A stretch of 64,000 nt of DNA from NCBI GenBank assembly GCA_902799985.1, contig CADCCR010000011.1, positions 153-64,152 on the forward strand, in the 5' to 3' direction. Numbering within the stretch: position 1 is the stretch's first letter; each line of letters opens with the position of its first letter. The notes below the pieces were generated by a model that saw only the letters and a list, made by a program, of their open reading frames with translations, was not told the origin of the DNA and did no database searches. The stretch comes from an uncultured Bacteroidales bacterium. Lineage in GTDB: Bacteria > Bacteroidota > Bacteroidia > Bacteroidales > Bacteroidaceae. Below, piece after piece: positions 16,232 through 57,247 of this stretch. Both the position numbers and the translations under genes were made by a program.

Positions 16232-18138
16232 GGGTTATTGCTTTTGTTGTCGGTGACTTTGGAGTCTTCTGGGTTCTCTGGGTTCTCTGAGTTCTCTGAA
16301 TTCTCTGAGTTCTCTGAGCTCTCTGAGCTCTCTGAATTCTCTGAGTCTTCTGAATTCTCTGAGTTCTCGGTATTCTCAGGGACTGTCTCCTCCCCCTTGG
16401 GGGAGGTTGGGAGGGGGCTTTCCTCTTCGGTGGAGGTTGTAAGGGGGCTTGAGTTCTGGTCGGGGGCTTCTATCCCCTTTTGCTTCTTGATGTCGCTGAG
16501 CTTCTGCTTGGGAGCCGCGTGGCGTACGCTCTCCTTGAGTTCGCTGCCGGCCTTCTTGGGGCGCCATTCGAAAATGTCATCCTTGTTGAGCGGACGTATG
16601 TAGTCGAACCATTCGAAGTTCTGCAGGTAGAGCATGTCCTGTGGGATAAGTGGAATGGGATACATGGTGCCGGTGGCAGCAGGCATCCAGATGCGGTCCA
16701 CCTTCCTGTCTGTCAGGAACATCTTGAGCAGAGTCGTCTCGGTATGGTTCATCTCCACCATGATGCTGTCCTCGTCGAAAGGATAGTAGTTGACGAAGAC
16801 GTTGCCCTCCGAGGTGCTGAGATACATTTCCCCATTCTTGAAGTAGGAGTGCATCTCGTGTCCTGACACTTGGTTGTAGTGTGTGTCGTCGAGCCGTTCC
16901 ACCGAGAGCGCCTGCCGCAGCACCAGCGTGCTGTCAATGGTGCTGTCGTTGAAGAAGATTTGTATCTCTTCGCCCAGCTGCTGCTGTCCCGCTTGCCAGA
17001 GGATGGGGTCGCGATACATGACGAGGATGCTGTCGCGTGTGTCGTAGACCATCGAGTCGCACACCGCCTGAATGTCGCGGCGGAAGGCTCGCATGTGGTG
17101 GTAGGCATGAATGACGCGGTAGGTGGAGTCCGTGTCGAGGTTGAACGTAAAGACCTTGAACGTGTCGGCATGCGCATACATCGTGTCCTGCTGGCTGTAG
17201 TCGATGCAGACGGCACGGTCGGTCGTCATGACGTATTCGGTGCTGTCCTCGTAGTAGCAGTATTCGCCGGTGAACATGTTCTTGTTGACGACATCGGAGT
17301 AGACCACATTGCCGAATGCCTCGGCTGTGGAGGTATCGTCGTTCCACACTACGCTGTCGCCCACGAGCCGTTTGCCGTTGTTGGTCAGAATGCTGCGGTC
17401 CAGCAGATGCGAGTGGTTCGTCTGCGTGTAGTAGTAGCCCAGCTCGGAATAGATATGGTTCTCGCCATTCTCTATATTGGAGGGGCCTACGATGTGTGCA
17501 ATGGCCGTCAGCGTGTTGTAGTGCAGCGTGTCGGAGATAAGCACCGTCTCAGGCTTGGCTGGAGGTGCGGGATTGACCAGCCGGACATTGTAGTTGAAGA
17601 CTGCTTCGTGGGTGGCCGGACTGTACTCTCCCCAGTCGCTGGTCAGCTCGTTGCCTTGGTCGAGAAGCCGTCCGCCCTCGAAGAAATAGCCGAGGTCGTA
17701 GAGACGGTCGTAGTCGAGGCTGTCCGTGTAGATGGTCGTGGTGCCGTGTTCGAGCACGACATCATATCGGGCACGTGCCAACTGGTCCAGGCCGTTGTAG
17801 TAGAGCACTTCGCTTTTGAGCATGAGTGTGTCGCCCTGGTTCAGGAGGACATGGCCGAAGGCATCAAGGGAGTTTGTGGATTCGTAGAAGAGCGCGCTGT
17901 CGCAGTAGAGCAACGCACCGTCGTGGCTGAACTGTACATGGCCCACCAGGAACTGTGCCGTGCGGTGCTTCCGCTCGTCGAAGAAGAGACGGTCGGCATG
18001 CAGCAAGTGCACCTTGCTGTCGGACGGCGGTCTGTTCTTGTCGGTCCGCCGCTGAGGCGTTACTGCCATAAGCAGACAAAGGCCGAAGAACAGTGACGCA
18101 CAGAGGATATATAGCCGCTGACCTTTCACTTTACCCAA
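16228..18138 (-). CDS. OstA/LptD-N-terminal-like domain protein with a repeat-derived acidic C-terminal tail
   Basis: N-terminal anchor, then repeated beta-jellyroll-like segments (LLHADRLFFDE...GHVQFSHDGALLYCDSALFYESTN...). Its position between the SurA-like genes and mutL is typical of Bacteroidota. Confidence 0.75.
   Translation of the reverse strand: MGKVKGQRLYILCASLFFGLCLLMAVTPQRRTDKNRPPSDSKVHLLHADRLFFDERKHRTAQFLVGHVQFSHDGALLYCDSALFYESTNSLDAFGHVLLNQGDTLMLKSEVLYYNGLDQLARARYDVVLEHGTTTIYTDSLDYDRLYDLGYFFEGGRLLDQGNELTSDWGEYSPATHEAVFNYNVRLVNPAPPAKPETVLISDTLHYNTLTAIAHIVGPSNIENGENHIYSELGYYYTQTNHSHLLDRSILTNNGKRLVGDSVVWNDDTSTAEAFGNVVYSDVVNKNMFTGEYCYYEDSTEYVMTTDRAVCIDYSQQDTMYAHADTFKVFTFNLDTDSTYRVIHAYHHMRAFRRDIQAVCDSMVYDTRDSILVMYRDPILWQAGQQQLGEEIQIFFNDSTIDSTLVLRQALSVERLDDTHYNQVSGHEMHSYFKNGEMYLSTSEGNVFVNYYPFDEDSIMVEMNHTETTLLKMFLTDRKVDRIWMPAATGTMYPIPLIPQDMLYLQNFEWFDYIRPLNKDDIFEWRPKKAGSELKESVRHAAPKQKLSDIKKQKGIEAPDQNSSPLTTSTEEESPLPTSPKGEETVPENTENSENSEDSENSESSESSENSENSENSENPENPEDSKVTDNKSNNP
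16261..16377. repeat. 9-bp tandem repeat, about 13 units (TGAGTTCTC family), coding for an (E-N/D/S-S)n tail
   Basis: Units run from 16261 to 16377. On the coding strand they give ENTENSENSEDSENSESSESSENSENSENSENPENPEDS. Confidence 0.9.
16389..16450. repeat. Two tandem copies of the GC-rich palindromic element, in frame in the OstA-like CDS
   Basis: cctcccccttgggggaggttgggagggggctt (16389-16420) and tcctcttcggtggaggttgtaagggggctt (16421-16450). They translate as SPLTTSTEEESPLPTSPKGEE. Confidence 0.85.
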
Positions 18139-22734: not shown

Positions 22735-24312
22735 ATGCTAAGAAAAATCCGTTTGACACTTGCTATCCTCTTTTGGGTGCTCATCACTTGGCTGCTTGTG
22801 GACTTCACCGGCACGGCACATGTCTACCTGGGATGGATGGCTAAAATTCAGTTTGTGCCGGCTCTGTTGGCACTGAATGTTGGAGCATTGCTCTTTGTGG
22901 TGACCCTGACGCTGCTCATGGGGCGCATCTATTGTTCTGTCATCTGCCCGTTGGGCGTGATGCAGGATGCTATCGCATGGCTGCGTCCTGGGAAGAACAA
23001 GTACAGCTTCTCGCCGGCTAAGACGACGTTGCGCTACACACTTCTCGTCGTGGCCTGCGCTGCCTTGGTCCTCAACGTGGCTTGGCTGGGCGGACTCATC
23101 TTCCCATACAGCACCTACGGCCGCATCGTCTCTGTCTGTGTGGCTCCCCTCTACAAGCTGGCCAACAACGGCCTTGCTGCTCTTGCCGAGCACTATGGCA
23201 GCTATGCCTTCTACGAGGTGGACGTCTGGCTGAAGAGCGTCACAGCCCTCGTCGTGGCACTCCTGACGTGGGCCGTCATTGCCGTGCTGGCCTGGAAGAA
23301 CGGCCGCACCTGGTGCAACACCATCTGTCCCGTAGGCACGCTGCTCGGCCTTATCAGCAGACATTCGTATCTCAGAATGACAATCGATGCCGACAAGTGC
23401 AAGAACTGTCGCAAGTGCGAGCGTAACTGCAAGGCAGCCTGCATCGACCTGAAGACGCACACCGTCGACCTCTCCCGTTGCGTGGTTTGCGGCGACTGCG
23501 AGGGGCAGTGCAAGTTCGATGCGTTGCATTTCACAAGCCTGAGTCCACAGACCCCCTCTAACTCCCCCTCAAAGGAGGAGGATTCCGGGCAGAAAGTCTT
23601 CCCTTCAAAGGGAGATTTAGAAGGGTCTCGCCGTGCAGCCCTGACCAGCATCGCCCTTCTTGCCGGCACAGCCCTCGCAAAGGCACAGAGCAAGGTGGAG
23701 CCTAAGACCACCGACGGCGGCCTGGCCGACATCATCAAGAAGGAGAAGTCGAAGCGCGACAAGCTCATCACACCTCCCGGCTCGCTCTCTATCCGCAACC
23801 TTCGCACCCATTGCACGGCTTGTCAGCTCTGCATCGATGCCTGTCCCAACGACGTGCTGCGTCCCAGCAGCAGCCTGGACCGCTTCATGCAGCCCGAGGT
23901 GAGCTTCGAGCGCGGCTATTGCCGACCCGAGTGCAACCGCTGTTCGCAGGTCTGCCCCACATCGGCCATCCAGCCCGTCACCGTGGAGCAGCGCACAGCC
24001 ATACAGGTGGGTCATGCTGTCTGGACGCGTGAGCTCTGCATCCCCGTCAGGGACGAAAAGCCCTGCGGACTCTGTGCCCGCAAGTGTCCTGCACAGGCCA
24101 TCCAGATGGTGCCCCTGCAGGCTGGCGTCCATCAGGACGGATGGCGCTGGCGCGATGCCGACAATCAGGAGATACCGCGCGAGAAGGTTCTGCTCATCCC
24201 CGTCGTGAACGAGGAGAAGTGCATCGGCTGCGGTGCCTGCGAGAACCTCTGCCCATCGAACCCCCTGAGCGCCATTCATGTGGAAGGACACGAGGTACAC
24301 AGAGAGATATAA
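22735..24312 (+). CDS. Membrane polyferredoxin with a NapH-like N-terminal half and a NapG-like C-terminal half
   Basis: The N-terminal half has transmembrane helices with two CX3CP motifs (YCSVICPLG, WCNTICPVG) and two CxxCxxCxxxC clusters. The C-terminal half has four more cluster motifs (CTACQLCIDACP, CNRCSQVCP, CGLCARKCP, CIGCGACENLCP). Confidence 0.8.
   Translation: MLRKIRLTLAILFWVLITWLLVDFTGTAHVYLGWMAKIQFVPALLALNVGALLFVVTLTLLMGRIYCSVICPLGVMQDAIAWLRPGKNKYSFSPAKTTLRYTLLVVACAALVLNVAWLGGLIFPYSTYGRIVSVCVAPLYKLANNGLAALAEHYGSYAFYEVDVWLKSVTALVVALLTWAVIAVLAWKNGRTWCNTICPVGTLLGLISRHSYLRMTIDADKCKNCRKCERNCKAACIDLKTHTVDLSRCVVCGDCEGQCKFDALHFTSLSPQTPSNSPSKEEDSGQKVFPSKGDLEGSRRAALTSIALLAGTALAKAQSKVEPKTTDGGLADIIKKEKSKRDKLITPPGSLSIRNLRTHCTACQLCIDACPNDVLRPSSSLDRFMQPEVSFERGYCRPECNRCSQVCPTSAIQPVTVEQRTAIQVGHAVWTRELCIPVRDEKPCGLCARKCPAQAIQMVPLQAGVHQDGWRWRDADNQEIPREKVLLIPVVNEEKCIGCGACENLCPSNPLSAIHVEGHEVHREI
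23552..23628. repeat. Two degenerate copies of the GC-rich palindromic element, in frame, forming the inter-domain linker
   Basis: ccccctctaactccccctcaaaggaggagg (23552-23581) and agtcttcccttcaaagggagatttagaagggtc (23596-23628). They translate as TPSNSPSKEEDSGQKVFPSKGDLEG. Confidence 0.6.
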
Positions 24313-25805: not shown

Positions 25806-25853
25806 CTCCCTGCGCTTCCTAAGCGCCCTGCGCTTCCGCAATAAGCGCACGCC
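25806..25853. repeat. Short 22-bp hairpin array (about 2 units) after the AKR stop
   Basis: cctgcgcttcctaagcgccctgcgcttccgcaataagcgcacgcc. This is the same family as 12695-12835 in the opposite orientation. Confidence 0.8.
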
Positions 25854-25871
25854 GTGTAGGAAACAAAAAAA

Positions 25872-25900
25872 GCCCCTTCCCGAATCTCCCGGGAAGGGGC
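25872..25900. terminator. Bidirectional intrinsic-terminator-like hairpin between convergent genes
   Basis: GCCCCTTCCCG-aatctcc-CGGGAAGGGGC is flanked by an A-run (25861-25871) and by cTTTcTgTTTg. Confidence 0.7.
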
Positions 25901-36147: not shown

Positions 36148-36181
36148 TTGATTACTAAATCAACAGAAGCTTTTGTCTATT

Positions 36182-37381
36182 ATGAAGAGATTCTTATCAT
36201 TCGTTTTTGTTGCGTCCTTGCTGAGTGCAGGCAGTGTCCTTGCCCAGACTGGCACGGGCTTCATCGGCAACGGCTACTATCGTATCCGCAATTATGCCAC
36301 CGACCGTTACATTTATGTGACGGACAACAAGGATTATTACGATATGGCACGCGACAAGGAGGATTTTCAGGCTATACAACTTTGGAAGGATGTCACTCGC
36401 TTTGCATCCGACCCCGGCAGTGTCATCTACTTTGAGGAAGTGACACCCGACCATTTCGACCTAAGGGCTCAGGGCACCGGGGTTCATTCCTTTACTGGTT
36501 ATTATGTTGGTGTGACCAAGAGTTCCGGCACTTATATTGTTTCGGCCAGTGTGACGAAAGCTGGAATGCAGGTGACGAAGTACCTGACCGATGACGAGCA
36601 GAGTTCGTCGGACCAAGGCACGATGGGAACCCGAGGCAAGCTCAACTACCGCAAGTGGATTGTGGACAAGATAGAGACGGACCATGCAACCAACTATTTC
36701 GGCATCAAGCCATCGATAGAGGTTGGTGGCAAGTTCTATCATCCGTTCTATGCCGCTTTCCCCTTCAAGGTGGCAAGCGCAGGGATGCATGTCTACTACA
36801 TCGACGAGGTGGAGAGCAAGTATGCCGTCTTGAAGGAGATAGAGGGCGAAGTGCCGGCCAGCACGCCTGTCCTCATCGAGTGCAGTTCAGCCAACCCTTC
36901 GGAGAACCGTGTTGAGCTTCTTGCCACTTCATCCGCTAAGGTGACTGGCAACTTGCTTGGCGGTAATTATTTCTGCAATGGCAAACGCCCTCAGGAGTCG
37001 GTCGATGCTTATAAAGTCTTCGATGCAGACAAGATGCGTGTCTTCTCGGTGGTGGACGGTCAGCTTGTGCTTACGAACAATGCGCAGGACCGTCTCAACG
37101 AGATAAAGACTGTCGACTACTCCACATTATCTATGATAAAGCTCAAGTGTCTTCCTTCCAACACCAGTTATATGAAGGCGGACTCTGATACACCTGCCGA
37201 GGTGCCCGTGTTCGTCGACGGTCAGGTTCCCGACGCCATTGGCAGCATCTTGGCAGAGCAGAAGCCTACGGCCGCAGGTGTCTATTCCCTCAGCGGCACA
37301 CAGCTTAGGGCATCGAGCGATTTGCAAGGTCTGCCTGCAGGCCTGTATATCGTGAACGGTAAGAAGGTAGTCATAAAATAA
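36182..37381 (+). CDS. Secreted hypothetical protein with a T9SS-type C-terminal tail
   Basis: The ATG at 36182 gives MKRFLSFVFVASLLSAGSVLAQ. The C-terminus ...GVYSLSGTQLRASSDLQGLPAGLYIVNGKKVVIK resembles those ending at 354 and 12435. Confidence 0.8.
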   Translation: MKRFLSFVFVASLLSAGSVLAQTGTGFIGNGYYRIRNYATDRYIYVTDNKDYYDMARDKEDFQAIQLWKDVTRFASDPGSVIYFEEVTPDHFDLRAQGTGVHSFTGYYVGVTKSSGTYIVSASVTKAGMQVTKYLTDDEQSSSDQGTMGTRGKLNYRKWIVDKIETDHATNYFGIKPSIEVGGKFYHPFYAAFPFKVASAGMHVYYIDEVESKYAVLKEIEGEVPASTPVLIECSSANPSENRVELLATSSAKVTGNLLGGNYFCNGKRPQESVDAYKVFDADKMRVFSVVDGQLVLTNNAQDRLNEIKTVDYSTLSMIKLKCLPSNTSYMKADSDTPAEVPVFVDGQVPDAIGSILAEQKPTAAGVYSLSGTQLRASSDLQGLPAGLYIVNGKKVVIK

Positions 37382-37459
37382 AGTCCCATCCCGACCTCGT
37401 CCGAGGGATGAGGTGAGGGGGTGACATATACATTATATATAATATATAGAGATTCTACG

Positions 37460-38650
37460 ATGAAGGCTTTTGGAGCTTTTGCAATAGCCCTGTCTCTGAC
37501 GGCAGCGATGTCGGCCCAGGAGGGCAGTCAGTCCTTTACTTCTGTGTTGGCTCGGAAGAATATCCTGAACCACATGGACGTTGGCGTGAACGTGGGCACG
37601 ATGGGTGTCGGCGTTGATGTGGCAGTGCCTGTAGGCGACTATGTGCGCGTGCGTGCCGGCTACCACTATATGCCGCGCTTCACCATCAACTCCGACTTCC
37701 CTGTCGAGACGCGTAGCGGCAGCTTGAGCCAGTCCGACTTGAAGCGCTACATGGGCAAGATGAGCGAAGTGACCACCATCTTGGAGCAAAACGGCATCAA
37801 CCTCGACAACTATTCGAGGGAAAAGTCGCTGATAGATAAGTTCAGCGGCGTGGAGCTGAAGGACAAAGTGTCGATGGGCATGCGTCCCAGCATGCATCAG
37901 TTCAAGCTTCTGGTAGACGTTCTTCCCTTCAAGAACAATAAGCATTGGAGTCTGACGACAGGTATCTTTGTCGGTCCGGCTCAGGTGGGCGATGCCTGCA
38001 ACAAGGATCTGGAAATGCCATTGCTGCAGGCAATCAATGCCTACAACGAGCTGTACGTCATGTCCTGCACCTGGGAAATGTTAGGTGGCGGCGACGTTTA
38101 CTACAGGGGCAGGTCGCTCCACGACACCTTCTCCAAGATGGGTGTTGCCGGCTTCCCCTTGGGAACGTTCGCCAGGGACGTCACGCGTGTCGTTACCGAC
38201 GAGAATGGCGCAGAACATACGCTTGTGGCGGCGAAGGGCACTAAGGCTATCATGGTGCCTTCAGCCGACGGGACTGCGCGTGCAGAGATGGAGGTGAGCA
38301 AGGTGCGTCCCTACATCGGGTTCGGCTACAACACACATCTGTCGCGCAACAAGCGTTGGCAGTTGAATGTCGATGCCGGTGTGATGTTCCTCTGTGGAGC
38401 TCCGAAGGTGTACGTTGACAACGTCTATAGCATCGACGAGTCGCTCATCGATACCGGCAACGAGGTGTACGATATAGTCCGCCCCAACGAGGAAGGGACG
38501 GACTATGTGGTGGACACACCTTTGTCGCACATCGACCTGGTTCGCGACTTGCAGGGAATCACCGGCAAGGTGGGCGACTTGGTGGACGTTGCCTCCAAGT
38601 TCAAGGTCTATCCGAATGCGACGGTGACGTTCTCGTACAGGTTGTATTAG
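37460..38650 (+). CDS. Hypothetical outer-membrane beta-barrel-like protein
   Basis: The ATG at 37460 gives the signal peptide MKAFGAFAIALSLTAAMSAQ. The protein ends ...ATVTFSYRLY, the aromatic terminus typical of outer-membrane barrels. Confidence 0.65.
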   Translation: MKAFGAFAIALSLTAAMSAQEGSQSFTSVLARKNILNHMDVGVNVGTMGVGVDVAVPVGDYVRVRAGYHYMPRFTINSDFPVETRSGSLSQSDLKRYMGKMSEVTTILEQNGINLDNYSREKSLIDKFSGVELKDKVSMGMRPSMHQFKLLVDVLPFKNNKHWSLTTGIFVGPAQVGDACNKDLEMPLLQAINAYNELYVMSCTWEMLGGGDVYYRGRSLHDTFSKMGVAGFPLGTFARDVTRVVTDENGAEHTLVAAKGTKAIMVPSADGTARAEMEVSKVRPYIGFGYNTHLSRNKRWQLNVDAGVMFLCGAPKVYVDNVYSIDESLIDTGNEVYDIVRPNEEGTDYVVDTPLSHIDLVRDLQGITGKVGDLVDVASKFKVYPNATVTFSYRLY

Positions 38651-38659: not shown

Positions 38660-38727
38660 AAGCCCCTCTCCAAACCTCCCCCAAAGGGGAGGCTTTTTTT
38701 GTTAGGGGAGGTTGGGATGAGGGGAGG
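38660..38727. repeat. GC-rich palindromic element (one full and one partial copy) between convergent genes
   Basis: aagcccctctccaaacctcccccaaaggggaggc, then TTTTTTT, then ggggaggttgggatgaggggagg. Confidence 0.85.
38675..38700 (+). terminator. Intrinsic terminator formed by the palindromic element
   Basis: CCTCCCC-caaa-GGGGAGG followed by cTTTTTTT, 25 nt after the stop at 38650. Confidence 0.6.
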
Positions 38728-38730
38728 ACC

Positions 38731-38835
38731 TCAGTAGCCCATGCACGAGGTGGTGCCGAGGGCGGTGAGGAAGGCTGTGAGGGCGGCAACGGCCATCTTC
38801 ACGAGCAGTTCGATAAATCTGTTCTTCTTTTTCAT
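38731..38835 (-). CDS. 34-codon ORF: signal peptide plus lipobox plus 3 residues (resembles the small ORFs I recall being labelled 'smalltalk protein' in Bacteroidales)
   Basis: Hand translation gives MKKKNRFIELLVKMAVAALTAFLTALGTTSCMGY. Its ATG overlaps the upstream TGA as ATGA (38832-38835). It is below the ORF-track cutoff. Confidence 0.55.
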   Translation of the reverse strand: MKKKNRFIELLVKMAVAALTAFLTALGTTSCMGY

Positions 38836-39320
38836 ACGTTCTTTTTGTATAGTTCAAAACCTTTGTTAATGATCTCTTCGGTCAGGAGCATCCCGCACTC
38901 CTGACGTGCCATGGCACGGACGAGTGCCGGCCAGTCATGTTCCGTGAGCCGCTGCGTGTCGCTCAGGCCAGTCCACAGGCAGACGTTGCGGATGTAGCGT
39001 TCGGTATCGTTCTCTGTGGGCGGTGCCCAGCGTCCGATGATGTCGCGGATGCAGCACAGCCCGTGCTTGTTGCGATAGGAGCGTAGGATGCAGAATGCGG
39101 CTCGGAGGCCCCATTCCATGCTCTCAAAGCGGACGAAGGCCCCTCTCCCGACCTCCCCCAAAGGGGAGGCCACATTGCTGATGAGGGGCTGCTCGCCTGG
39201 AGTTGACTTCGTCGGGCGTTTGCTACTCCCCTTGCAGAGGGAGTCAGCGGGGGTCTCTTCCCCCTTCCACTTCTGCCCTTTGACTCGGCGGATATTCAGC
39301 GGGTTGTTGTTAGAGTTCAT
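38832..39320 (-). CDS. Hypothetical protein downstream of the HU-HIG gene (family seen in phage and Bacteroidales contexts; function unknown)
   Basis: NPLNIRRVKGQKWKGE...FVRFESMEWGLRAAFCILRSYRNKHG...IRDIIGRWAPPTENDTERYIRNV. It carries an in-frame palindromic element (ASPLGEVGRGAF). Confidence 0.7.
   Translation of the reverse strand: MNSNNNPLNIRRVKGQKWKGEETPADSLCKGSSKRPTKSTPGEQPLISNVASPLGEVGRGAFVRFESMEWGLRAAFCILRSYRNKHGLCCIRDIIGRWAPPTENDTERYIRNVCLWTGLSDTQRLTEHDWPALVRAMARQECGMLLTEEIINKGFELYKKNV
39136..39170. repeat. GC-rich palindromic element in frame within CDS 38832-39320
   Basis: aaggcccctctcccgacctcccccaaaggggaggc. Confidence 0.85.
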
Positions 39321-39346
39321 AGTTCATAATTCATAGTTCATAGTTA
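39314..39346. repeat. Octamer-type repeat (TTCATAGT/TTCATAAT) spanning the start codon of CDS 38832-39320
   Basis: agttcatagttcataattcatagttcatagtta. Confidence 0.75.
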
Positions 39347-39380
39347 AGAGTTTTGCGTTTTTGTTTCCGCGGCCGTTCCC

Positions 39381-39423
39381 CGCCTCCCCTTTGGGGGAGG
39401 AGGGGTTAGGGGAGGAGAGGGGC
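39381..39423. repeat. GC-rich palindromic element between the HU-HIG gene and the downstream gene
   Basis: cgcctcccctttgggggaggaggggttaggggaggagaggggc. Confidence 0.85.
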
Positions 39424-39427: not shown

Positions 39428-39889
39428 TTACTCGAGCCCCTGGATGGTGTCCTGGTTCTTGATGACCTCGATGGCGGAGTTCTGTGCGGCACGGGTGGGC
39501 ACAAGCTGGAAGGTGGCGTAGGAGCGGAGGTCCTGGAATTCCTTGCCGGGAGTCCAGCTGACGTTCACCTCCTTGATGTTGGCAGCGGTGAAGGCATCGG
39601 CGGTCTTGGCTCCTTCGGTCTTGAGCTGTGCCTGGAAGTCGCCCAGGTCGCCGAGCTTGACGCGCTTGCCGTCGAGGATGAGTTCGCGCAGACACCCTAC
39701 GGCGATGTTGAGTACGGCGATGATGTCCCCCTTGCTGTAGACGCTGCCGTGGTTGGTGATGTGGTTGGCAAAGGCGTTGATGTCGAGTACTTCGTTCGAC
39801 TGTGCCACGCCGTAGGCCTTGGTCTCGGTGATGTCTTCCTTCTTGGTTCCGGGCTGTGCGGACATGATAGCGATGCTGTAGTTAATCAT
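39428..39889 (-). CDS. Bacteroidales-type HU-like DNA-binding protein (HU-HIG architecture)
   Basis: 153 aa with an HU-like core (...NHITNHGSVYSKGDIIAVLNIAVGCLRELILDGKRVKLGDLGDF...) and a C-terminal extension. Confidence 0.75.
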   Translation of the reverse strand: MINYSIAIMSAQPGTKKEDITETKAYGVAQSNEVLDINAFANHITNHGSVYSKGDIIAVLNIAVGCLRELILDGKRVKLGDLGDFQAQLKTEGAKTADAFTAANIKEVNVSWTPGKEFQDLRSYATFQLVPTRAAQNSAIEVIKNQDTIQGLE

Positions 39890-40064: not shown

Positions 40065-40157
40065 GGAAGCTCAGGCTTCCGGGGTAAGCGGCCCGTGCTT
40101 CCGTAATAAGCGCCCTGCGCTTCCGAGATAAGCGCCTTGCGCTTCTGAAATAAGCGC
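40065..40157. repeat. 22-bp hairpin array (about 4 units)
   Basis: ...gcttccgtaataagcgccctgcgcttccgagataagcgccttgcgcttctgaaataagcgc. Same family as 12695-12835, in reverse orientation. Confidence 0.85.
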
Positions 40158-40217
40158 GGGGAGTTTCTGCTACAAGTGCGGGAAGTGATGGATGAAGGAC
40201 TGTGTAGGAAACAAAAA

Positions 40218-41757: not shown

Positions 41758-41811
41758 GAGCGCCCGTCCCCATCCTTCCGCGAAGAAGGGAGGGGAGAAG
41801 AAACAATCTGC

Positions 41812-43038: not shown

Positions 43039-46000
43039 ATGCAAAACAAAGGATTTGTAAAGGTTTTCGCGCTCCTGCTTACGCTGGTGTGCATCTTTTA
43101 CCTGAGTTTCTCCGTTGTGACAAGTCACTACGAGAGCAAGGCTGAGGCTATCGCACAGACTGACGGCCAGGAAGCTGCCGACCGTTATCTGGACACCCTG
43201 CTCAACAAGAAGGTGTACTGCAACGTATGGACTCTGAAGGAGTGCCGCGAGATGGGCATCGGCCTGGGTCTCGACCTCAAGGGCGGTATGAATGTCATTC
43301 TCGAGGTAAGCGTGCCTGATGTCGTCAAGGCATTGGCCGACCACAAGGAGGAGACCGACGAAAACTTCCGCAAGGCTGTAGAGCAGGCAACAACCGCTGC
43401 TCAGGCTAGTCAGAGTGATTTTATTACCTTATTTATTAAGAACTACAAGGAATTGGAGCCCAACAAGGCTCTGGCCGAGCTCTTTGCCACACAGCAGCTG
43501 CGCGACAAGGTGACCACCAAGAGCACCGATGCAGAGGTGGAGCGCGTGCTCCGCGCCGAGGTGAAGAGTGCCATCGACAACTCGTACAACGTGCTTCGCA
43601 CACGTATCGACCGTTTCGGTGTGGTTCAGCCCAACATCCAGGCCCTCGAAGGCCAGGAGGGTCGCATCATGGTCGAAATGCCCGGCGTGAAGGAGCCCGA
43701 GCGCGTGCGTAAGCTCTTGCAGGGCAGCGCCAACCTCGAGTTCTGGGAGACCTACAATGCACAGGAGATTACTCCTTTCCTCATTAACCTCGACGCCAAG
43801 CTTGCTGCCGCACTGAGCACCATCGAAGATGAGGCTCCTGCCGACACAGCAACTGTCGTTGCACATACCGACGAGCAGAAGGTTGAAGCACCTGCCGACA
43901 CCGCTAAGGCAACAGCCGACCTGGCTTCTGCCGTAGCCGACAAGGATGTCGATGCCACTCAGAACATGTCTGCTGCCGACATCGAGAAGGCTCACAAGCA
44001 GAATCCCCTGCTCAGCCGCTTGAACCACAGATATGCCTATGGTTGCGTGGTAGGCGTTGCCAGCAAGCGCGACATGGACGCCATCGACGAACTGCTTGCT
44101 TCTCCCGAGGCAAAGGAAGTTCTTCCCTCTGACCTCCGCCTCAAGTGGGGCGTGAAGGGCATGGGCGAAGGTGCCAACGCAAACATCTATGAGCTCTATG
44201 CCATCAAGGTTACGGAGCGCAACGGCCGTGCTCCCCTCGAGGGCGACGTTGTGACCGATGCCAGCGACTCTTTCGACCAGCGCGGTATGCCTTGCGTCAG
44301 CATGAAGATGAACGTCGACGGTGCACGCCGCTGGGCAGCCCTCACCAAGGCTAACCTCAAGCGTAGCGTCGCCATCGTGCTCGACGACAATGTATACAGT
44401 GCTCCCACCGTACAGAGCGAGATTACCGGTGGTAACTCCGAGATTACGGGTCACTTCACAGCAGAGGACACCCGCGACCTGGCCAACGTGCTGAAGTCCG
44501 GTAAGATGCCCGCTCCTGCCAAGATTGTGAGCGAGGAGATTGTAGGTCCCTCTCTGGGTGCCGAGTCCATCCGCCAGGGTATCTGGAGCTGCGTCATCGC
44601 CTTCATTATCCTCATGGTCTACATGATCACGATGTATGGCTTCATTCCTGGAATGGTTGCCAACGGTGCTCTTATCCTGAACCTCTTCTTCACCATCGGT
44701 GTCCTGACCAGTTTCCAGGCAGCCCTGACCATGAGCGGTATCGCCGGTATGGTGCTGTCGTTGGGTATGGCCGTCGATGCCAACGTGCTCATCTACGAGC
44801 GCACGAAGGAAGAGATGAAGGCCGGCAAGAAGGTGCGCGAGGCACTGGCTGCCGGTTACAGCAACGCCTTCAGCGCCATCTTCGACTCGAACCTGACGTC
44901 CGTCATCACGGCTATCATCCTCTACTACTTCGGTACAGGACCCATCCGCGGCTTCGCCACCACGTTGCTCATCGGTATCTGCGTCAGCTTCTTCACCGCT
45001 GTGTTCCTCACACGCGTCGTGTACACACAGGTTATGGATAAGGACAAGTGGCTCGGCCTGACCTTCCGTACGGCCATCGGCGACAAGATTTCCTTCCAGA
45101 ATCCTGCCTACAAGTTCATGAATGCCTACAAGCGTAGCTTCACCATCTTCGGCGTGTTGGCAATCCTCAGCGTTGTCTTCATGTTCACACGCGGCTTCAG
45201 CAAGAGCATCGACTTCACCGGCGGTCGCAACTTCGTTGTGCTGTTCGAGAATCAGGTGCAGCCCGAGACCGTTCGTGGTCTGCTGGCCGAGGCATTCCCC
45301 GAAAGCAACACCAGCGCCATCGCTCTGGGCACCGAGGGCAAGACCGTCCGTATCTCTACGAACTATCGCATTGAAGAGGACGGCATCGAGGTGGACAGCG
45401 AGATTGAAGAGAAGCTCTTCAACACCCTGAAGGGCGGCGGTCTGCTGGCAGGCGACCTCACCTTGGAGAACTTCATCAACCGCGACGAGCGTGCCGGCGG
45501 CTCCATCATCAGCAGCCAGAAGGTAGGTCCTTCCGTAGCATCCGACATCACGAAGGGTGCCATCTGGAGCGTCATCCTCGCCTTCATCGCCATCTTCGTC
45601 TACATCTTCATCCGCTTCCGCAACCTGTCATTCTCCTTCGGTGCCATCACCGCACTGTTTGTCGACATCATCCTCATCCTGGGAATGTACAGCATGTGCT
45701 GGGGCTGGATGCCCTTCTCGCTCGAGATAGACCAGACGTTCATCGGTGCCGTGCTGACCGCTATCGGTTATTCTATCAACGATAAGGTGGTTGTCTTCGA
45801 CCGCATCCGCGAGTTCCTCCGCCTGCACCCGAAGCGCGACAAGCAGGACCTCTTCAATGCTTCGCTGAACAGCACCCTGAACCGTACCATCAACACCTCT
45901 GTCTCTACGTTCATCGTACTGGCAGTCATCTTCTGCCTCGGCGGTAACAGCATCCGCTCGTTCGCCTTCGCTATGATTCTGGGTGTCATCTTCGGTACGC

Positions 46001-46083
46001 TCTCGTCCATCTTCGTGGCAGCTCCCACAGCCTACCTCACACATGGCAAGACCATCGTGGAAGGTGCAGAAGAGAAGAAGTAA
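43039..46083 (+). CDS. secDF: Protein translocase subunit SecDF (fused)
   Basis: 1,014 aa with a large periplasmic domain and two 6-TM blocks (...GLDLKGGMNVILEV..., ...IDFTGGRNFVV...). Confidence 0.95.
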   Translation: MQNKGFVKVFALLLTLVCIFYLSFSVVTSHYESKAEAIAQTDGQEAADRYLDTLLNKKVYCNVWTLKECREMGIGLGLDLKGGMNVILEVSVPDVVKALADHKEETDENFRKAVEQATTAAQASQSDFITLFIKNYKELEPNKALAELFATQQLRDKVTTKSTDAEVERVLRAEVKSAIDNSYNVLRTRIDRFGVVQPNIQALEGQEGRIMVEMPGVKEPERVRKLLQGSANLEFWETYNAQEITPFLINLDAKLAAALSTIEDEAPADTATVVAHTDEQKVEAPADTAKATADLASAVADKDVDATQNMSAADIEKAHKQNPLLSRLNHRYAYGCVVGVASKRDMDAIDELLASPEAKEVLPSDLRLKWGVKGMGEGANANIYELYAIKVTERNGRAPLEGDVVTDASDSFDQRGMPCVSMKMNVDGARRWAALTKANLKRSVAIVLDDNVYSAPTVQSEITGGNSEITGHFTAEDTRDLANVLKSGKMPAPAKIVSEEIVGPSLGAESIRQGIWSCVIAFIILMVYMITMYGFIPGMVANGALILNLFFTIGVLTSFQAALTMSGIAGMVLSLGMAVDANVLIYERTKEEMKAGKKVREALAAGYSNAFSAIFDSNLTSVITAIILYYFGTGPIRGFATTLLIGICVSFFTAVFLTRVVYTQVMDKDKWLGLTFRTAIGDKISFQNPAYKFMNAYKRSFTIFGVLAILSVVFMFTRGFSKSIDFTGGRNFVVLFENQVQPETVRGLLAEAFPESNTSAIALGTEGKTVRISTNYRIEEDGIEVDSEIEEKLFNTLKGGGLLAGDLTLENFINRDERAGGSIISSQKVGPSVASDITKGAIWSVILAFIAIFVYIFIRFRNLSFSFGAITALFVDIILILGMYSMCWGWMPFSLEIDQTFIGAVLTAIGYSINDKVVVFDRIREFLRLHPKRDKQDLFNASLNSTLNRTINTSVSTFIVLAVIFCLGGNSIRSFAFAMILGVIFGTLSSIFVAAPTAYLTHGKTIVEGAEEKK

Positions 46084-46201
46084 GAACCAGGAATCCGACG
46101 GGGACTGACCCCGACAGATGCTCCTATATAGAGAGAAGGACGTGTGTCAAAGACTTTTGGCACACGTCCTTCTTTGTTTTTCGACACGTGGTTGGTTCGG
46201 A

Positions 46202-46283
46202 GACCCCCTCCAAACCTCCCCGAGGGGAGGCGTCCTTCGCTGCGACATCCACTCCCCCGCGGGGGAGACGGAAGGGGGCGCTT
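46202..46283. repeat. Two copies of the GC-rich palindromic element in opposite orientation
   Basis: gaccccctccaaacctccccgaggggaggc (46202-46231) and ctcccccgcgggggagacggaagggggcgctt (46252-46283). Confidence 0.8.
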
Positions 46284-46349
46284 CCGGAAGCGCCCCGTGC
46301 TTATTCCGGAAGCGCCTAGCGCTTATTTTGGAAGCGCACGGAGCTTTTT
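46277..46349. repeat. 22-bp hairpin array (about 3 units) ending in a T-run
   Basis: ggcgcttccggaagcgccccgtgcttattccggaagcgcctagcgcttattttggaagcgcacggagcttttt. Confidence 0.85.
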
Positions 46350-46415
46350 GTCCCGCCGCAGGGGGTGAGAAGTCAGAATCTGTTTCGTTTCCTTTGTCAT
46401 TTCGAATTTTATCTG

Positions 46416-46445: not shown

Positions 46446-49064
46446 ATGGCAAAAGAAGCGCTCACACCGATGATGAAACAGTTCTACGACCTCAAGGCCA
46501 AGCACCCCGAGGCGCTTCTGCTGTTCCGTTGCGGCGACTTCTACGAGACGTATGCCGACGATGCTGTCATCGCAGCCGAGATACTGGGCATCACCCTGAC
46601 GCGGCGCAACAACGGCAAGACGGGCGCCGTCGAGAGCATCGCCATGGCCGGCTTCCCCTATCATGCACTCGACACCTACCTGCCGAAGCTCGTCAGGGCA
46701 GGCAAACGTGTGGCCATCTGCGACCAGCTCGAAGACCCGAAGATGACGAAGACGCTCGTCAAGCGCGGCATCACGGAACTCGTCACGCCCGGCGTCACCA
46801 TGTCCGACACGGTGCTCAACCATCGCGAGAACAACTTCCTCTGCGCCATACACTTCGGCAGACAAGCCTGCGGCATGGCACTCCTCGACATCAGCACCGG
46901 CGAGTTCCTCGTCACGGAAGGCACAACCGACTACGTCGACAAGCTCATGTCCTCCTTCGCCCCCAAGGAAGTGCTCTACGAGCGCGGCAAGAAAGGCATG
47001 TTCGAAGGGTCGTTCGGCACACGCTACGTCACCTTCGAGCTCGACGACTGGGCCTTCACCGAGCAGACCGCCCGACAGAAACTCCTGCGCCACTTCGAGG
47101 TGACCAGCCTGAAGGGCTTCGGCGTAGAGCACATGACGAGCGCAGTGGTGGCGGCAGGTGTCATCCTGCAGTACTTGGAGATGACGCAGCATCAGCAGCT
47201 CGGACACATCACCACGCTGCGCCGCATCGAGGAGGACCGCTACGTCCGCCTCGACAAGTTCACGGTGCGCAACCTCGAACTGGTGGGCAGCATGAACGAA
47301 GGCGGCATCTCGCTCCTCGACATCATCGACCGCACCGTCACCCCCATGGGCGCCCGCATGCTCCACCGATGGATGCTCTTCCCCCTGAAGGACCCCGTGG
47401 AGATAGGGAAACGTCAGGACGTCGTGGAGTACTTCTTCCGCGACCCCGACCTCCGCGACGCTGTGTTGGAACGGCTCCGTACGGTGGGCGACCTGGAACG
47501 CATCATATCGAAGGTCAGCGCACGGCGCGTCACACCGCGCGACGTCGTACAGCTCCGCATCGCCCTGCAGGCCGTGGAGCCCATCAAACAGATGTGTCTC
47601 ACCTCCGACGACCACACGCTCCACGACATCGGACAGCGGCTCGACCTCTGTGCCGACATACGCGACCGCATCGCCCGCGAAGTGCGGCCCGACCCGCCAC
47701 TGCTCACTACCGGCGGCGGCATCATCATGGAAGGCATCAACAGCGAACTGGACGAACTGCGACACATCGCCTACCAGGGGAAGAGCTACCTGCTCGAAAT
47801 GCAGCAACGCGAAATAGAGAAGACCGGCATACAGAGCCTGAAGATAGGCTACAACAACGTCTTCGGCTACTACCTCGAGGTGCGCAACACCTATCGCGAC
47901 CAAGTGCCGGCAGACTGGATACGCAAGCAGACGCTCACACAGGCCGAACGATACATCACGCAGGAGCTCAAGGAGTACGAGGACAAGATAATGGGTGCCG
48001 AGGAACGCATCTTCAGCCTCGAGGCCATGCTCTTCGACCAGCTCATCACAGCCCTCGCAGCCTACGTCACACCCATCCAGCGCGATGCGTCGCTCCTGGC
48101 ACAGCTCGACTGCCTTCTCTCCTTTGCTCAGAGCGCCCAGGAAAACAGATACATACGTCCCATCGTGGACGACAGCGATGCCATCGACATACATGGCGGC
48201 CGGCATCCCGTCATCGAGAAGCAGCTCCCCGTGGGCGAACGCTACATCCCCAACGACGTCTTCCTCGACACACAGACACAGCAAATCATCATCATCACCG
48301 GACCGAACATGGCCGGTAAGAGCGCTCTGCTCCGCCAGACGGCACTCATCACCCTGCTGGCTCAAATGGGCAGCTTCGTGCCGGCCGAGCGGGCACGTAT
48401 CGGTTACGTGGACAAGATCTTCACCCGCGTCGGGGCCAGCGACAACATCAGCATCGGCGAGAGCACCTTCATGGTGGAGATGAACGAGGCGGCCAGCATC
48501 CTGAACAACCTCTCGGAGCGCAGTCTGGTGCTCTTCGACGAACTGGGTCGCGGCACAAGCACCTACGACGGCATCTCCATCGCATGGGCCATCGTGGAGT
48601 ACATCCACGAGAGCAACAAGGGCCGCGCCCGCACGCTTTTCGCCACACACTACCACGAACTGAACGAGATGGAACGCAGCTTCCAGCGCATCAAGAACTT
48701 CAATGTCAGCGTCAAGGAAGTCGACGGGAAGGTCATCTTCCTGCGCAAGCTCGAGCGAGGCGGCTCGGAACACAGCTTCGGCATACACGTGGCCAAGATA
48801 GCCGGCATGCCTCGCGTCATCGTCCAGCGTGCAGGAACGATTCTCGAGCAACTCGAAGGCTCCACGAGTCACAAGGACCTGGCCGGCCGCATCAAGACCG
48901 GCACCGACTCCGAGAAAGGTGTGCAGATGAACTTCTTCCAGCTCGACGACCCCGTCCTCTGTCAGATTCGCGACGAAATCCTCGGCCTCGACATCAACAA
49001 CCTCACTCCCCTCGAAGCCCTCAGCAAGCTCAACGACATCAAGAAGCTGGTGAAAGGGAAATAA
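46446..49064 (+). CDS. mutS: DNA mismatch repair protein MutS
   Basis: [30 protein letters not shown], and the Walker A motif [10 protein letters not shown]. Length 872 aa. Confidence 0.95.
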
Positions 49065-49682: not shown

Positions 49683-51650
49683 ATGCGGTGGTCTGTTCTC
49701 CTTTTGCTATGGCTCTTCCCTCTTGTTGAAGCTATGGCTCAGAACTCCTCCCCTTTGGTGGAGGCTGGGAGAGGGGCTTCGTGGGACGACTTTGTCGAGG
49801 AATATCTGAGCGACGAGGAACGGGCTGACGACGAGGACCTGCAGCTGCATCTGCAAGACCTCAAGGAACTTTCCGAACACCCCCTGAACATCAACACGGC
49901 AACCGTAGAGGACCTTCTGCAGTTGCCGTTCCTGTCTGAGGCACAGATAGAACAGATACATGCCTACATCTACCTGCACGGACAGATGCAGACGCTCTCG
50001 GAACTGCGACTGGTGCCGCTCATCGACGATGCGACACGCCGCTGGCTCTCCCTCTTCGCCTATGCCGGGACGGAGCAACACGAGGACCGCCGCTTCCTGG
50101 GCCGCCTGCATCACGACATCTCGTCGCGCCTCGACGTGCCCCTCTACTACCGCATGGGACAGCAGCGGGCCGACGGTTACAGGGGCGATGCGCTCTATCA
50201 TCGCCTGCGCTACACGCTCTCCGACGGCCGGCACCTGCAGGCGGGACTGCGCATAGAGAAGGATGCAGGCGAACGCTTCTACGACAGCTACGGCGCCTAC
50301 GCCATGCTGCAGGATGTGGGACCGCTGCAGAAGGCCGTCGTAGGCGACTACCGCATCGGCTTCGGCGAAGGGCTGGTGATGGGCGGTTCGACGTGGCACA
50401 GCAAGTCGACACCGCCGCTGAAGGTGCAGGGTGGACTGCGACCGATGACGGGCATGGACGAGGTGAACTTCCTGCGCGGCGCGGCTGTGACGTTCTCGCT
50501 GGGCAGACATGTCAGTCTGAGCGCGTTCGGTTCCTATCGCAAGCGCGATGCTACGCTGACCGACGAGGGCGAGGTGCAGACCTTGCGCACAGACGGTTAT
50601 CACCGGACAGCATCGGAATGGGACAGGAGGCGGAACGTGGGCAGCACCATGCTGGGCGGCAACATCGCCTGGCAGGGCAGCGGCTTCCACCTGGGAGCCA
50701 CAGGCTACTGGCAGCAGTTCAGCCGCTCCCTCAACCCCGGCACGCAGCAGTATCGTGCCATTTATCCCAAAGGAAAGACCTTCGGCACGGCAGGCGTGAA
50801 CTATGGCTACACGCGCTACCGCATCGCACTGGCCGGCGAGACGGCCTACAGCACAGCCGGCGGGGGCATGGCCACCGTGAACCGCATCTCGTGGACCCCA
50901 AGCCGACGCTACACGCTCTCCGTCGTGCAACGCTTCTTCTCCTATAACTATTATTCCTTCTACGGCAGCACCTTGAGCGAGAACAGCTCGCCGCAGAACG
51001 AGAGCGGCGTGCTCGTACACCTGCAAGCCGAGCCGCTGGCGGGACTCTCGCTGACGGCCTATGCCGATTTCTTCCACAATCCCTGGCCGCGCTACCGCAT
51101 GACGCACAGCAGCACCGGCCAGGACTTCATGCTGCAAGGCACGTATGCCCTCTCCCGAAGGCAGACCATCATGGCACGATATCAGTTGAAGCGCAAGGAG
51201 AACGGCGACCGCATGGAGCCGCACCACCGCGTGAAGTTGCAGTGGACCTGCGAAGCATCCGGCCGTTGGCGCCTGCAGACGACGGGTTCCTTCCACAGCG
51301 TGCTGGGCTGCAAAGGCTTCCTCCTGAGCCAAAACGCCCGTTTCATCGTAAAAAAACCGGGCTTGACCCTCAACGGACAGCTCGGATACTTCCACACCGA
51401 CGACTACGCGAGCCGCATCTACGTCCAGCATCCTGCACTCTTCAGCAGCGTCTCGTCGGCCTCCTACTACGGGCACGGCATGCTGGGCGTCGCCACGTGC
51501 CGCTGGCAAAGCAAGAACAGACGTTGGATGCTCGAAGGGCGTTACAGTCTGCTCCGCTACTTCGACCGCGACGAGCAGGGCACAGGTCTGCAGGCCATCA
51601 TGAGCGCCTGGAAGAACGACATCTCCGTGCAGTTCCGCATAAGGATATAG
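49683..51650 (+). CDS. Helix-hairpin-helix domain protein with a large C-terminal beta-rich region
   Basis: Signal peptide, HhH segments (LNINTATVEDLLQLPFLSEAQIEQI), then about 500 aa rich in aromatic-alternating strands. Confidence 0.8.
   Translation: MRWSVLLLLWLFPLVEAMAQNSSPLVEAGRGASWDDFVEEYLSDEERADDEDLQLHLQDLKELSEHPLNINTATVEDLLQLPFLSEAQIEQIHAYIYLHGQMQTLSELRLVPLIDDATRRWLSLFAYAGTEQHEDRRFLGRLHHDISSRLDVPLYYRMGQQRADGYRGDALYHRLRYTLSDGRHLQAGLRIEKDAGERFYDSYGAYAMLQDVGPLQKAVVGDYRIGFGEGLVMGGSTWHSKSTPPLKVQGGLRPMTGMDEVNFLRGAAVTFSLGRHVSLSAFGSYRKRDATLTDEGEVQTLRTDGYHRTASEWDRRRNVGSTMLGGNIAWQGSGFHLGATGYWQQFSRSLNPGTQQYRAIYPKGKTFGTAGVNYGYTRYRIALAGETAYSTAGGGMATVNRISWTPSRRYTLSVVQRFFSYNYYSFYGSTLSENSSPQNESGVLVHLQAEPLAGLSLTAYADFFHNPWPRYRMTHSSTGQDFMLQGTYALSRRQTIMARYQLKRKENGDRMEPHHRVKLQWTCEASGRWRLQTTGSFHSVLGCKGFLLSQNARFIVKKPGLTLNGQLGYFHTDDYASRIYVQHPALFSSVSSASYYGHGMLGVATCRWQSKNRRWMLEGRYSLLRYFDRDEQGTGLQAIMSAWKNDISVQFRIRI
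49746..49779. repeat. GC-rich palindromic element in frame just after the signal peptide
   Basis: ctcctcccctttggtggaggctgggagaggggctt, which encodes SSPLVEAGRGAS. Confidence 0.8.
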
Positions 51651-51695: not shown

Positions 51696-51955
51696 CGTGC
51701 GGATTTGAAATCCGCACGCTTGAATATAGGGATTTATAATCCCGCAACTCTTTTTGCCGCATTTCAAATGCTTATATCCAATGCTGTCGGATTGCAAATC
51801 CGACAGAACATTACAAGAAGCGCCCCGTGCTTATTTTGGAAGCGCGGATTGCAAATCCGACAGAACATTACAAGAAGCGCCCCGTACTTATTTCGGAAGC
51901 GCTAGGCGCTTATTCCGGAAGCACAGGGCGCTTATTTTGGAAGCGCACGCCGTGT
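51696..51955. repeat. Composite repeat region: GGATT-loop-AATCC hairpins, a roughly 57-bp direct duplication and 22-bp hairpin units
   Basis: Hairpins at 51696-51716, 51728-51742, 51784-51804 and 51843-51860. A direct repeat spans 51787-51843 and 51845-51900. 22-bp units run to about 51955. Confidence 0.85.
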
Positions 51956-51965
51956 CTGTATGAAG

Positions 51966-55925: not shown

Positions 55926-55931
55926 TGTTTC

Positions 55932-57166: not shown

Positions 57167-57247
57167 CGAAAAAAAATCAGAATGTGAGGTTGTATGCTAT
57201 AAAAATTATCTTCTTTCAAGGGAACAGCGACACTTTCCTCCGTGTCG

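Follow-up and report, generated by a model that had tools for sequence, protein, structure and literature searches.

Dispersed three-block repeats with the architecture of intrastrand triplex motifs, at gene ends and in frame within proteins, in a Bacteroidales genome

Intrastrand triplex repeats have been known for more than 25 years. In their account of 'intrastrand triplex DNA repeats', Holder et al. (2015; PMC4666352) focused on TMECO, 5'-CCCTCNCCC N3-6 GGGNGAGGG N3 GGGNGAGGG-3', a motif known in the 1990s as the BoxC repeat and to Hoyne and Maher as the PIT element (Hoyne et al. 2000 and Hoyne & Maher 2002, as cited there). They counted 3610 copies across 262 genomes of Proteobacteria, reported G/C-rich motifs to be abundant in cyanobacteria, and observed a stable class II triplex formed by TMECO single-stranded DNA in vitro. 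The same paper describes TTA and CCG as loop-2 types, inverted doublets and elevated sequence variability in the neighbourhood of the motif. It states that TMECO invariably lies between genes and does not occur on phages or plasmids, and it does not mention Bacteroidetes; our literature search found no account of such repeats in Prevotella or Bacteroidetes. Here we describe a dispersed repeat family in a 64-kb stretch of chromosomal DNA of a Bacteroidales bacterium (the window, whose positions are used as coordinates throughout). By its sequence architecture the repeat is a class II, purine-motif intrastrand triplex motif (TM), the triplex itself being predicted.

The window family resembles BoxC/PIT/TMECO in carrying pyrimidine, purine and mirror purine/T blocks on one strand (class II), in combining a variable first loop with a 3-nt second loop, TTA and CCG being among its loops, and in being G/C-rich and dispersed in tens to hundreds of copies whose loops are less conserved than their arms. 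Frequent inverted doublets, local indel instability and the lack of an assigned function or a known mobilising gene are also common to both. The differences lie in the arms, which are 7-8 nt long (CCTCCCC) as opposed to 9 nt in TMECO, and in the occurrence of the window family in Bacteroidota, in coding sequences (CDSs) and on viral contigs, whereas TMECO is reported as exclusively intergenic. The strict TMECO consensus had 0 matches in the window, and TMECO-like stems (CCCTCTCC/GGAGAGGG/GGGTGAGG) occur in related genomes. The family is thus a Bacteroidota member of an already known kind of repeat and opens no new category; what is new relative to the account of Holder et al. is its tolerance in coding regions and its presence on viral contigs. 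A preliminary description of this DNA had suggested that no equivalent was on record for this lineage; the suggestion is not supported, insofar as BoxC/PIT/TMECO of Proteobacteria and Cyanobacteria already represent the kind in print (PMC4666352).

Other systems are more distant. H-DNA, an intramolecular triplex formed in duplex DNA at homopurine-homopyrimidine mirror repeats, likewise has a homopurine mirror repeat such as the purine arm and third block form here, but for it two blocks together with negative supercoiling suffice, whereas the additional complementary block of the window unit lets an isolated strand supply all three. Rickettsia palindromic elements (RPEs), with which the family had been compared, are about 100-150 bp long, encode 30-50 residues and form long RNA/DNA hairpins; to our knowledge they are restricted to Rickettsia and relatives. 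That analogy stands for in-frame tolerance, since both are short repeat DNA lying in frame in unrelated genes and landing in non-essential surface segments, but fails for length and architecture, the window unit being 33 nt (9-12 residues) and consisting of a hairpin plus a mirror repeat. Repetitive extragenic palindromes (REPs) and REPINs, the elements of REP-associated tyrosine transposases (RAYTs), are likewise structured units of 20-40 nt at gene ends that occur as singlets or inverted doublets and in genome-specific sub-families; they are, however, essentially extragenic, and the window units have an extra mirror block and lack their GTAG-type head, which was not found in the aligned copies (these start AAGCCCC or end GGGGCTT). 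Finally, the candidate RNA Whalefall-1 (Weinberg et al. 2010; PMC2864571), for which whale-fall metagenomes are the only known source, combines a UCuCuCC/GGaGaGA hairpin with a G-rich box (AGgGuGAGGA) after it, and three window copies match it on the G-rich strand, although its model has a 24-nt insert between hairpin and box. These matches to the Rfam model (RF01762), at 39140-39172, 39380-39417 and 38661-38695, scored 19.8, 19.7 and 16.9 bits against a gathering score of 37, and neither the window nor any of 18 TM-rich loci had an Rfam match that reached the gathering score. Membership in Whalefall-1 or CRISPR-DR53 was rejected as resemblance below the gathering threshold; we regard Whalefall-1 as a lead, its consensus itself resembling a triplex motif.

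Three-block architecture and copies in the window

On its G-rich strand the unit of approximately 33 nt consists of a pyrimidine arm CCTCCCC, a 2-5 nt loop, GGGGAGG, a 3-nt loop and GGAG(A)GGGG (a full 33-mer is CCTCCCCCTTGGGGGAGGTTGGGAGGGGGC, and the local third-block variant is GGAGAGGGG). Blocks 1 and 2 are reverse complements of each other and form the hairpin, block 3 repeats block 2 in mirror image, and on the complementary C-rich strand the blocks stand in the matching pyrimidine-motif order. The element had been taken as simply palindromic, a view that did not survive because its trailing TTGGGAGGGGG repeats the purine arm in mirror order and turns the palindrome into a three-block triplex motif. 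Block order with loops of 1-6 nt, complementary arms of at least 6-7 nt with at most one mismatched triplet, a mirror third block and an excess over random expectation, the sequence features by which class II motifs are defined in ITxF (PMC4666352), were all found in the window.

Evidence that the third block depends on the second came from a genome collection, in which the pattern CCTCCCC-N2-5-GGGGAGG-NNN-GGAGRGGG was present at at least 120 loci. In approximately 930 kb of unrelated pattern-matched loci there were 61 asymmetric-arm pyrimidine/purine hairpins with stems differing from the searched pattern, which for that reason constitute an unbiased test set. A perfect mirror third block under purine-motif rules accompanied 44 of the 61, as compared with 3 of 61 in a direct-repeat control, and the loop between purine arm and third block was mostly 3 nt. 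The mirror covariation spans more than 15 arm sequences, among them (purine arm followed by third block) GGGGAGA and AGAGGGG, GGGAGGA and AGGAGGG, GGAGGGG and GGGGAGG, GAGGGGG and GGGGGAG, GGAGAGGG with either GGGTGAGG or GGGAGAGG, and GGGGGAAGGG and GGGATGGGGG. Covariation over so many stems is comparative evidence that a three-block fold, beyond the hairpin, is maintained. T was frequent in the third block opposite an A:T pair, which is allowed in the antiparallel purine motif and not in the pyrimidine motif, and the G-rich DNA strand is therefore probably the relevant one.

As the preliminary description had proposed, there is a dispersed repeat family in the window, and its reality was confirmed. 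The exact hairpin CCTCCCC-N3/4-GGGGAGG occurs four times (16389, 38675, 39152 and 39383) against 0.00 in 100 dinucleotide shuffles. A hidden Markov model (HMM) was seeded with six listed copies, three C-rich on the + strand (38660-38693, 39137-39169 and 46200-46232) and three G-rich (49746-49779, 16388-16421 and 16421-16450), whose own E-values of 7e-9 to 1.4e-5 are consequently partly circular; it also matched 39383-39400, a partial copy (E 0.0016), and, weakly, degenerate stretches at 23549-23581, 23598-23625, 37381-37407, 46252-46278 and 25870-25899. In a scan of ITxF style, with arms of 7 nt, loops of 2-6 and 1-6 nt, no more than one mismatched triplet and G.G:C, A.A:T or T.A:T accepted, six class II triplex motifs were found as opposed to 0 in 40 second-order Markov controls, with a first loop of 2-6 nt and a second of 3-5 nt. 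Two of the six had 0 mismatches (16389-16417 and 46205-46230), three had one (38663-38692 and 39140-39169, each with an extra third-strand A, and 46252-46278), and the sixth, 23551-23582, is degenerate with 1 mismatch. Approximately five further recognisable decayed copies exist besides these strict-scan units; the copies at 49746-49779 and 16421-16450 are decayed, and both fall outside the strict arm and mismatch limits. Watson-Crick hairpin energies were unexceptional against shuffles (z -1.4 to +0.4) in a folding that models Watson-Crick pairs only, and energy thus argues neither way.

Most of the copy positions listed earlier were accepted (Table 1); those at 14001-14026, 37385-37421 and 41767-41796 were not convincing. 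All three were dropped as plain or interrupted hairpins with no matching third block, and 25870-25899 was likewise rejected, for interrupted arms or the lack of such a block. The stretch 37381-37418, which overlaps the second of the three, is a 37-nt hairpin-forming insertion right after the stop of CDS 36173-37381 and is absent from L127, a syntenic contig of a related species. Inverted doublets occur at 46200-46283, 38660-38727 and 23549-23625: the first lies between SecDF (43039-46083) and MutS (46446-49064) and has 46200..46232 as its left and 46252..46278 as its right member, and the second is an incomplete inverted doublet of the copy 38660..38700 with the partial unit next to it.

The genes of the window include MutS, MutL, an OstA_2/LptA-like protein and HU-HIG; tail sequences like those of the type IX secretion system are also present according to our own reading of the repeat D13. 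The closest named homologs belong to metagenome-assembled genomes (MAGs) designated 'Bacteroidaceae bacterium'. Contigs with 98-99.9% identity to the window derive from ENA metagenome assemblies; some carry the label STEW19, which we take to be a cattle rumen project.

Positions within genes and at gene ends

Translation bore out the earlier claim that copies are tolerated in frame in four unrelated CDSs, 38832-39320(-), 49683-51650(+), 16228-18138(-) and 22735-24312(+), where they are read as SPLGEVGRG, SSPLVEAGRGAS, SPLTTSTEEESPLPTSPKGEE and a degenerate doublet in a polyferredoxin, respectively. Each of these sites is a disordered linker or tail, or the N-terminus of a mature protein. Host gene 1 (38832-39320) had no Pfam or NCBIfam match; its family has a hypervariable segment between conserved WKGE and FVRFES that contains zero, one, two or three SPLGEVGRG-type units along with other repeat-derived peptides. 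In the DNA of one multi-copy homolog (P0071) the linker contains one C-rich unit of a TMECO-like sub-family and one G-rich unit behind which half a purine arm, loop 2 and the third block recur as 24-nt tandem copies, the tandem copies in this linker being 24 and 33 nt long. An AlphaFold2 model of the window protein gave a predicted local distance difference test score (pLDDT) below 50 at residues 26-58, and the unit forms the end of that low-confidence linker, which agrees with the flexible location expected for such insertions.

Host gene 2 provides filled and empty sites. Its unit stands directly after the ...AQ cleavage motif of the signal peptide, and orthologs of this helix-hairpin-helix (HHH) protein are either 645 aa long (...AQ-K-YDWDDFVEE) or 655-656 aa long (...AQ-N-SSPLGEAGRGA-SWDDFVEE), in which the segment fits precisely between the ...AQ of the signal peptide and WDDFVEE. 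Two units are present in one ortholog, and the segment is absent from all orthologs at 55-60% identity. At the DNA level the filled site measures 36 nt and the empty site 6 nt. The unit is intact in the ortholog on contig L176, which the window copy matches at 32 of 33 positions, as against approximately 73% identity in the aligned 3' flank (our own count from the alignment). The contig with the empty site, L175, contains 0 units in 22 kb, compared with 3-4 per 20 kb in the filled contigs L127 and L176.

In the OstA_2/LptA-like protein (16228-18138) both units lie in a C-terminal extension and are read in the C-rich sense (SPLPTSPKGE for the perfect unit, SSPLTTSTEE for the decayed one) within a tail that is absent from most OstA_2 homologs and variable in others; in a 98%-identical variant a frameshift lies within the unit and the protein is cut short, so this tail is unconstrained. 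Directly after the two units, a 9-nt tandem repeat at 16241-16393 encodes the acidic (E-N-S)n C-terminus of the protein, and relatives have other PE/SE-rich tails or none. In the polyferredoxin (22735-24312) the doublet lies in an inter-domain linker whose length is hypervariable among homologs. The ortholog alignments that had been suggested as a check thus came out in favour of insertion: distant orthologs lack the peptide and close ones differ in its presence, absence or copy number at the same spot, which indicates that the segment was inserted and is not a compositional coincidence.

Beyond the window, 53 of 140 pattern matches (38%, against 79% for a background coding proxy) lie inside long open reading frames (ORFs), 36 in the G-rich and 17 in the C-rich sense, with SSPxGGGREGA and SPLPTSPKGEE as recurrent peptides. 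The consensus unit contains no stop codon in any frame, and indels seen at coding sites (30 nt net, 24 nt and 33 nt) are multiples of three, as is the unit of 33 nt. For annotation this means that SPLGEVGRG, SSPxGGGREGA and SPLPTSPKGEE in Bacteroidota proteins are to be read as repeat-derived filler of disordered segments and not as conserved functional motifs. A 2258-aa ORF of a Chloroflexi MAG (L114) contains, at 3899-3985, two near-identical tandem units read as PSPTGGGWERVQG(E/A)QQLDN, and the motif thus enters coding repeats outside Bacteroidota too.

The intergenic copies sit at gene ends, as had been stated. The copy at 38660..38700, read in its G-rich (class II) sense on the - strand, lies 10 nt past the stop of CDS 37421-38650(+) and has an orthologous counterpart in L127; that at 39383..39423 lies 5 nt 3' of the stop of the HU-HIG gene (39428-39889(-)) and is conserved in L127. 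A terminator scan picked up the terminator-like hairpin and T7 run at 38675-38700, in sense to CDS 37421-38650, in agreement with the terminator that had been noticed there. Among the window copies this is the only one with a hairpin plus T-run; elsewhere the combination is found in a TTT-spacer sub-family, flanked by AAAAG in other genomes so that the C-rich strand bears a hairpin and T-run.

Distribution, spread and competing explanations

Among the matches listed for the at least 120 genome loci, approximately 80% were in Bacteroidota and the rest came from at least eight other phyla. In IMG/VR the motif was present on 46 viral-contig stretches, and a single contig could have as many as six matches. 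Three IMG/VR contigs of 41-58 kb (Table 1) have four to six exact matches each, a density that equals or exceeds the one in the bacterial window, where 64 kb contain 4 exact hairpins. One multi-copy contig had only two PHROG matches, both of unknown function, which leaves its phage nature unconfirmed.

Loop sequences were far more alike within than between genomes: loop 1 was common to 39% of within-genome pairs as opposed to 4.4% between genomes, and loop 2 to 35% as opposed to 10%, with 0 of 2000 permutations as high in either case. Matched loops within genomes mark genome-specific sub-families and are the signature of amplification or conversion from resident copies, and this sharing points to spread of the copy-and-paste type. 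Together with the filled and empty sites in genes, such sub-families are evidence for copy-and-paste over chance composition. In comparison with L127, G-boxes have been gained or lost by indels of 16 and 9 nt, the 16-nt box at 38713-38728 being absent from L127. Rumen and gut Bacteroidales MAGs and the viral contigs form a sampled population in which new insertions could be caught.

We consider it likely that the repeats are a class II TM family of selfish or near-neutral character that spreads via a single-stranded DNA stage and is kept where it is harmless. A single DNA strand would fold back twice, blocks 1 and 2 forming a Watson-Crick hairpin and the third block lying antiparallel on the purine arm via G.G:C, A.A:T or T.A:T reverse-Hoogsteen triplets. 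The geometry of the purine motif, which accommodates T opposite A:T and according to PMC4666352 is not formed in RNA, favours a structure at the DNA level over one at the RNA level. As a selfish or near-neutral DNA-level repeat, the unit would proliferate when its folded structure is recognised or copied in single-stranded form, for which a replication fork or lagging-strand template, or else a structure-specific nuclease or transposase, are candidate settings. Copies would survive only at harmless sites, that is, past gene ends, where some may have been co-opted as terminator hairpins, or in flexible protein segments, and within coding sites only indels in multiples of three would persist.

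Several points weigh against this explanation. With respect to the fold, the third strand of the three best copies in the interval 38660-39423, to which the preliminary description had drawn attention, has an extra A (GGAGAGGGG compared with the mirror GGAGGGG), which entails one mismatched or bulged triplet; arms with a single A make the mirror partly equivalent to a shifted G-run, multi-A arms covarying too; the triplex of the E. coli motif went undetected in duplex DNA by in vivo dimethyl sulfate footprinting (PMC4666352); and triplex folding in our family is a prediction from the letters of the DNA. With respect to mobility, no presence/absence polymorphism was seen among strain-level contigs (98-99.9% identical), in which all compared copies (38660-39423) were unchanged, no clean recent insertion was found, a target-site duplication could not be read at the filled/empty HHH site or at the 37381 insert because the flanks are too diverged, and no mobilising gene was found in the 64 kb of genome covered, which was not subjected to a dedicated RAYT/IS200-type search. 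Lastly, in protein-fetched comparisons, copies orthologous between species of approximately 85-89% identity were conserved better than their flanks, the copy at 46200..46232 with its counterpart in L127 among them; such conservation fits selection for function or gene conversion as well as selfish persistence. The corresponding copy-versus-flank comparison of in-CDS units in two ortholog trios was discounted, since those loci had been fetched by the pattern itself and the comparison is circular.

Orthologous in-CDS units at L007 7719-7747 on the one hand and at L034 3716-3744 and L124 5560-5588 on the other differ only by a loop flip (CCCCCTTGGGGG versus CCCCCAAGGGGG). Between the two forms (CTTG versus CAAG) the hairpin is inverted and the third block has not moved, as is expected under hairpin inversion by template switching.

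Dispersed copies, singlets and inverted doublets, gene-end positions, in-frame tolerance and REPIN-like genome-specific sub-families would all be in keeping with an ordinary selfish palindrome of the REP, RPE or miniature inverted-repeat transposable element (MITE) type, the G-rich tail being a conserved flank without structural meaning, which was the view taken in the preliminary description. A passive flank, however, would not mirror-covary with the purine arm over more than 15 stems (44 of 61 against 3 of 61), there is no GTAG-type REP head, and the unit is 33 nt long as opposed to the 100-150 bp of RPEs, so that we regard this view as unlikely. An RNA-level element, whether an intrinsic terminator, an mRNA-stabilising hairpin or a small RNA such as a relative of Whalefall-1, would account for the canonical hairpin and T7 at 38675-38700, the TTT/AAAAG sub-family elsewhere and the three sub-threshold Whalefall-1 matches. 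It is nevertheless quite improbable, given that the window copies lie in both senses to transcription (as do those elsewhere, 36 versus 17), that most copies have no T-run, that Rfam gave no match at gathering score and that third-strand T opposite A:T fits a purine motif said not to form in RNA (PMC4666352); in addition, the earlier work on E. coli PIT elements, in the form in which PMC4666352 cites it, found no promoter or terminator activity.

The four G-runs on the G-rich strand and four C-runs on the C-rich strand also raise the question of G-quadruplex or i-motif repeats, GGGGGAGGTTGGGAGGGGG having four G tracts of at least 2, but a quadruplex requires neither a conserved pyrimidine arm nor mirrored A/T positions and the hairpin would compete with it, which makes this alternative very unlikely. 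That a linker of the SPLGEVGRG or SPLPTSPKGE type is selected at the protein or compositional level, with DNA likeness as a by-product, is scarcely credible: the recurrence of the same reading frames in many hosts is what such convergence would produce, but it is better explained by selection against other frames, and the same DNA unit is found between genes and in both orientations, distant orthologs are without the segment, and at the HHH site the unit is better matched than its 3' flank. A more far-reaching proposal than the near-neutral TM family favoured above is that the triplex fold signals an active single-stranded copy-and-paste mechanism across bacterial phyla and phage, the units being functional structured-DNA elements under DNA-level selection in coding regions. 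It would draw on copies being conserved better than the surrounding codons and on loop flips, which would indicate that the hairpin forms in vivo, and if it were true TM units would be, for example, replication or recombination signals as well as a recurrent source of new protein linkers; we consider it doubtful.

Table 1. Triplex-motif (TM) copies, host genes and 22-nt arrays of the window, and motif loci on three multi-copy IMG/VR contigs
Feature	Position or locus	Strand	Details
TM copy	38660..38700	-	+ strand: third-strand complement GCCCCTCTCC, AAA, CCTCCCC, CAAA, GGGGAGG, CTTTTTTT
Partial unit, extra G-boxes only	38703..38727	+	GGGGAGG TTG GGATGAGGGGAGG
TM copy inside CDS 38832-39320(-)	39137..39169	-	G-rich sense, S52-P-L-G-E-V-G-R-G60
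TM hairpin, then duplicated G-boxes	39383..39423	+	CCTCCCC-TTTG-GGGGAGG, then AGGGG TTA GGGGAGG AGAGGGGC
Perfect TM	16388..16421	+	CCTCCCCC TT GGGGGAGG TTG GGAGGGGG; 8/8 mirror, 0 mismatches
Decayed tandem second copy	16421..16450	+	Same orientation as 16388..16421; read SSPLTTSTEE
Perfect TM	46200..46232	-	- strand: CCTCCCC TC GGGGAGG TTT GGAGGGGG; 0 mismatches
TM	46252..46278	+	CTCCCCC GC GGGGGAG ACG GAAGGGG; 1 mismatch; perfect in L127
Decayed TM inside CDS 49683-51650(+)	49746..49779	+	One G>T in purine arm
Degenerate inverted doublet	23549..23625		C-rich 23549-23581, G-rich 23598-23625
Host gene 1	38832..39320	-	162-aa protein; 886 homologs, some records 'structural protein P5'
Host gene 2	49683..51650	+	Secreted helix-hairpin-helix (HHH_3) protein, 655 aa
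22-nt unit arrays	12682-12870, 25820-25866, 40075-40182, 46284-46362, 51788-51985, 57236-57379
IMGVR_UViG_3300000302_000009	L131, L144, L153, L157
IMGVR_UViG_3300031994_005366	L132, L137, L163, L166
IMGVR_UViG_3300038345_000409	L161, L162, L164, L174

Other tandem repeats of the window

A second intergenic repeat family consists of tandem arrays of a 22-nt unit, approximately GCGCTTATTTCGGAAGCGCAGG, that holds the small palindrome AAGCGCnnnGCGCTT. The array beginning at 46284 adjoins the TM doublet and is approximately 84 nt (4 units) longer in L127. At 6552-6811, also intergenic, adjacent tandem arrays with periods of 22 nt (ACAATTTCTTCGCCCCGGATGA-type) and 21 nt (AAATATATTTCAAAGGCTTGG-type) are accompanied by a 68-nt inverted repeat. 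Tandem repeats of 7 nt (TTCATAG/TTCATAA; TATGAAC on the coding strand, with an ATG in each unit) lie directly 5' of start codons at 39307-39346, 55925-55964 and 59628-59660. Their copy number differs between strains, five strain-level contigs showing a deletion of 14 nt and L127 an insertion of 21 nt, and this variation could affect start-site choice or expression.

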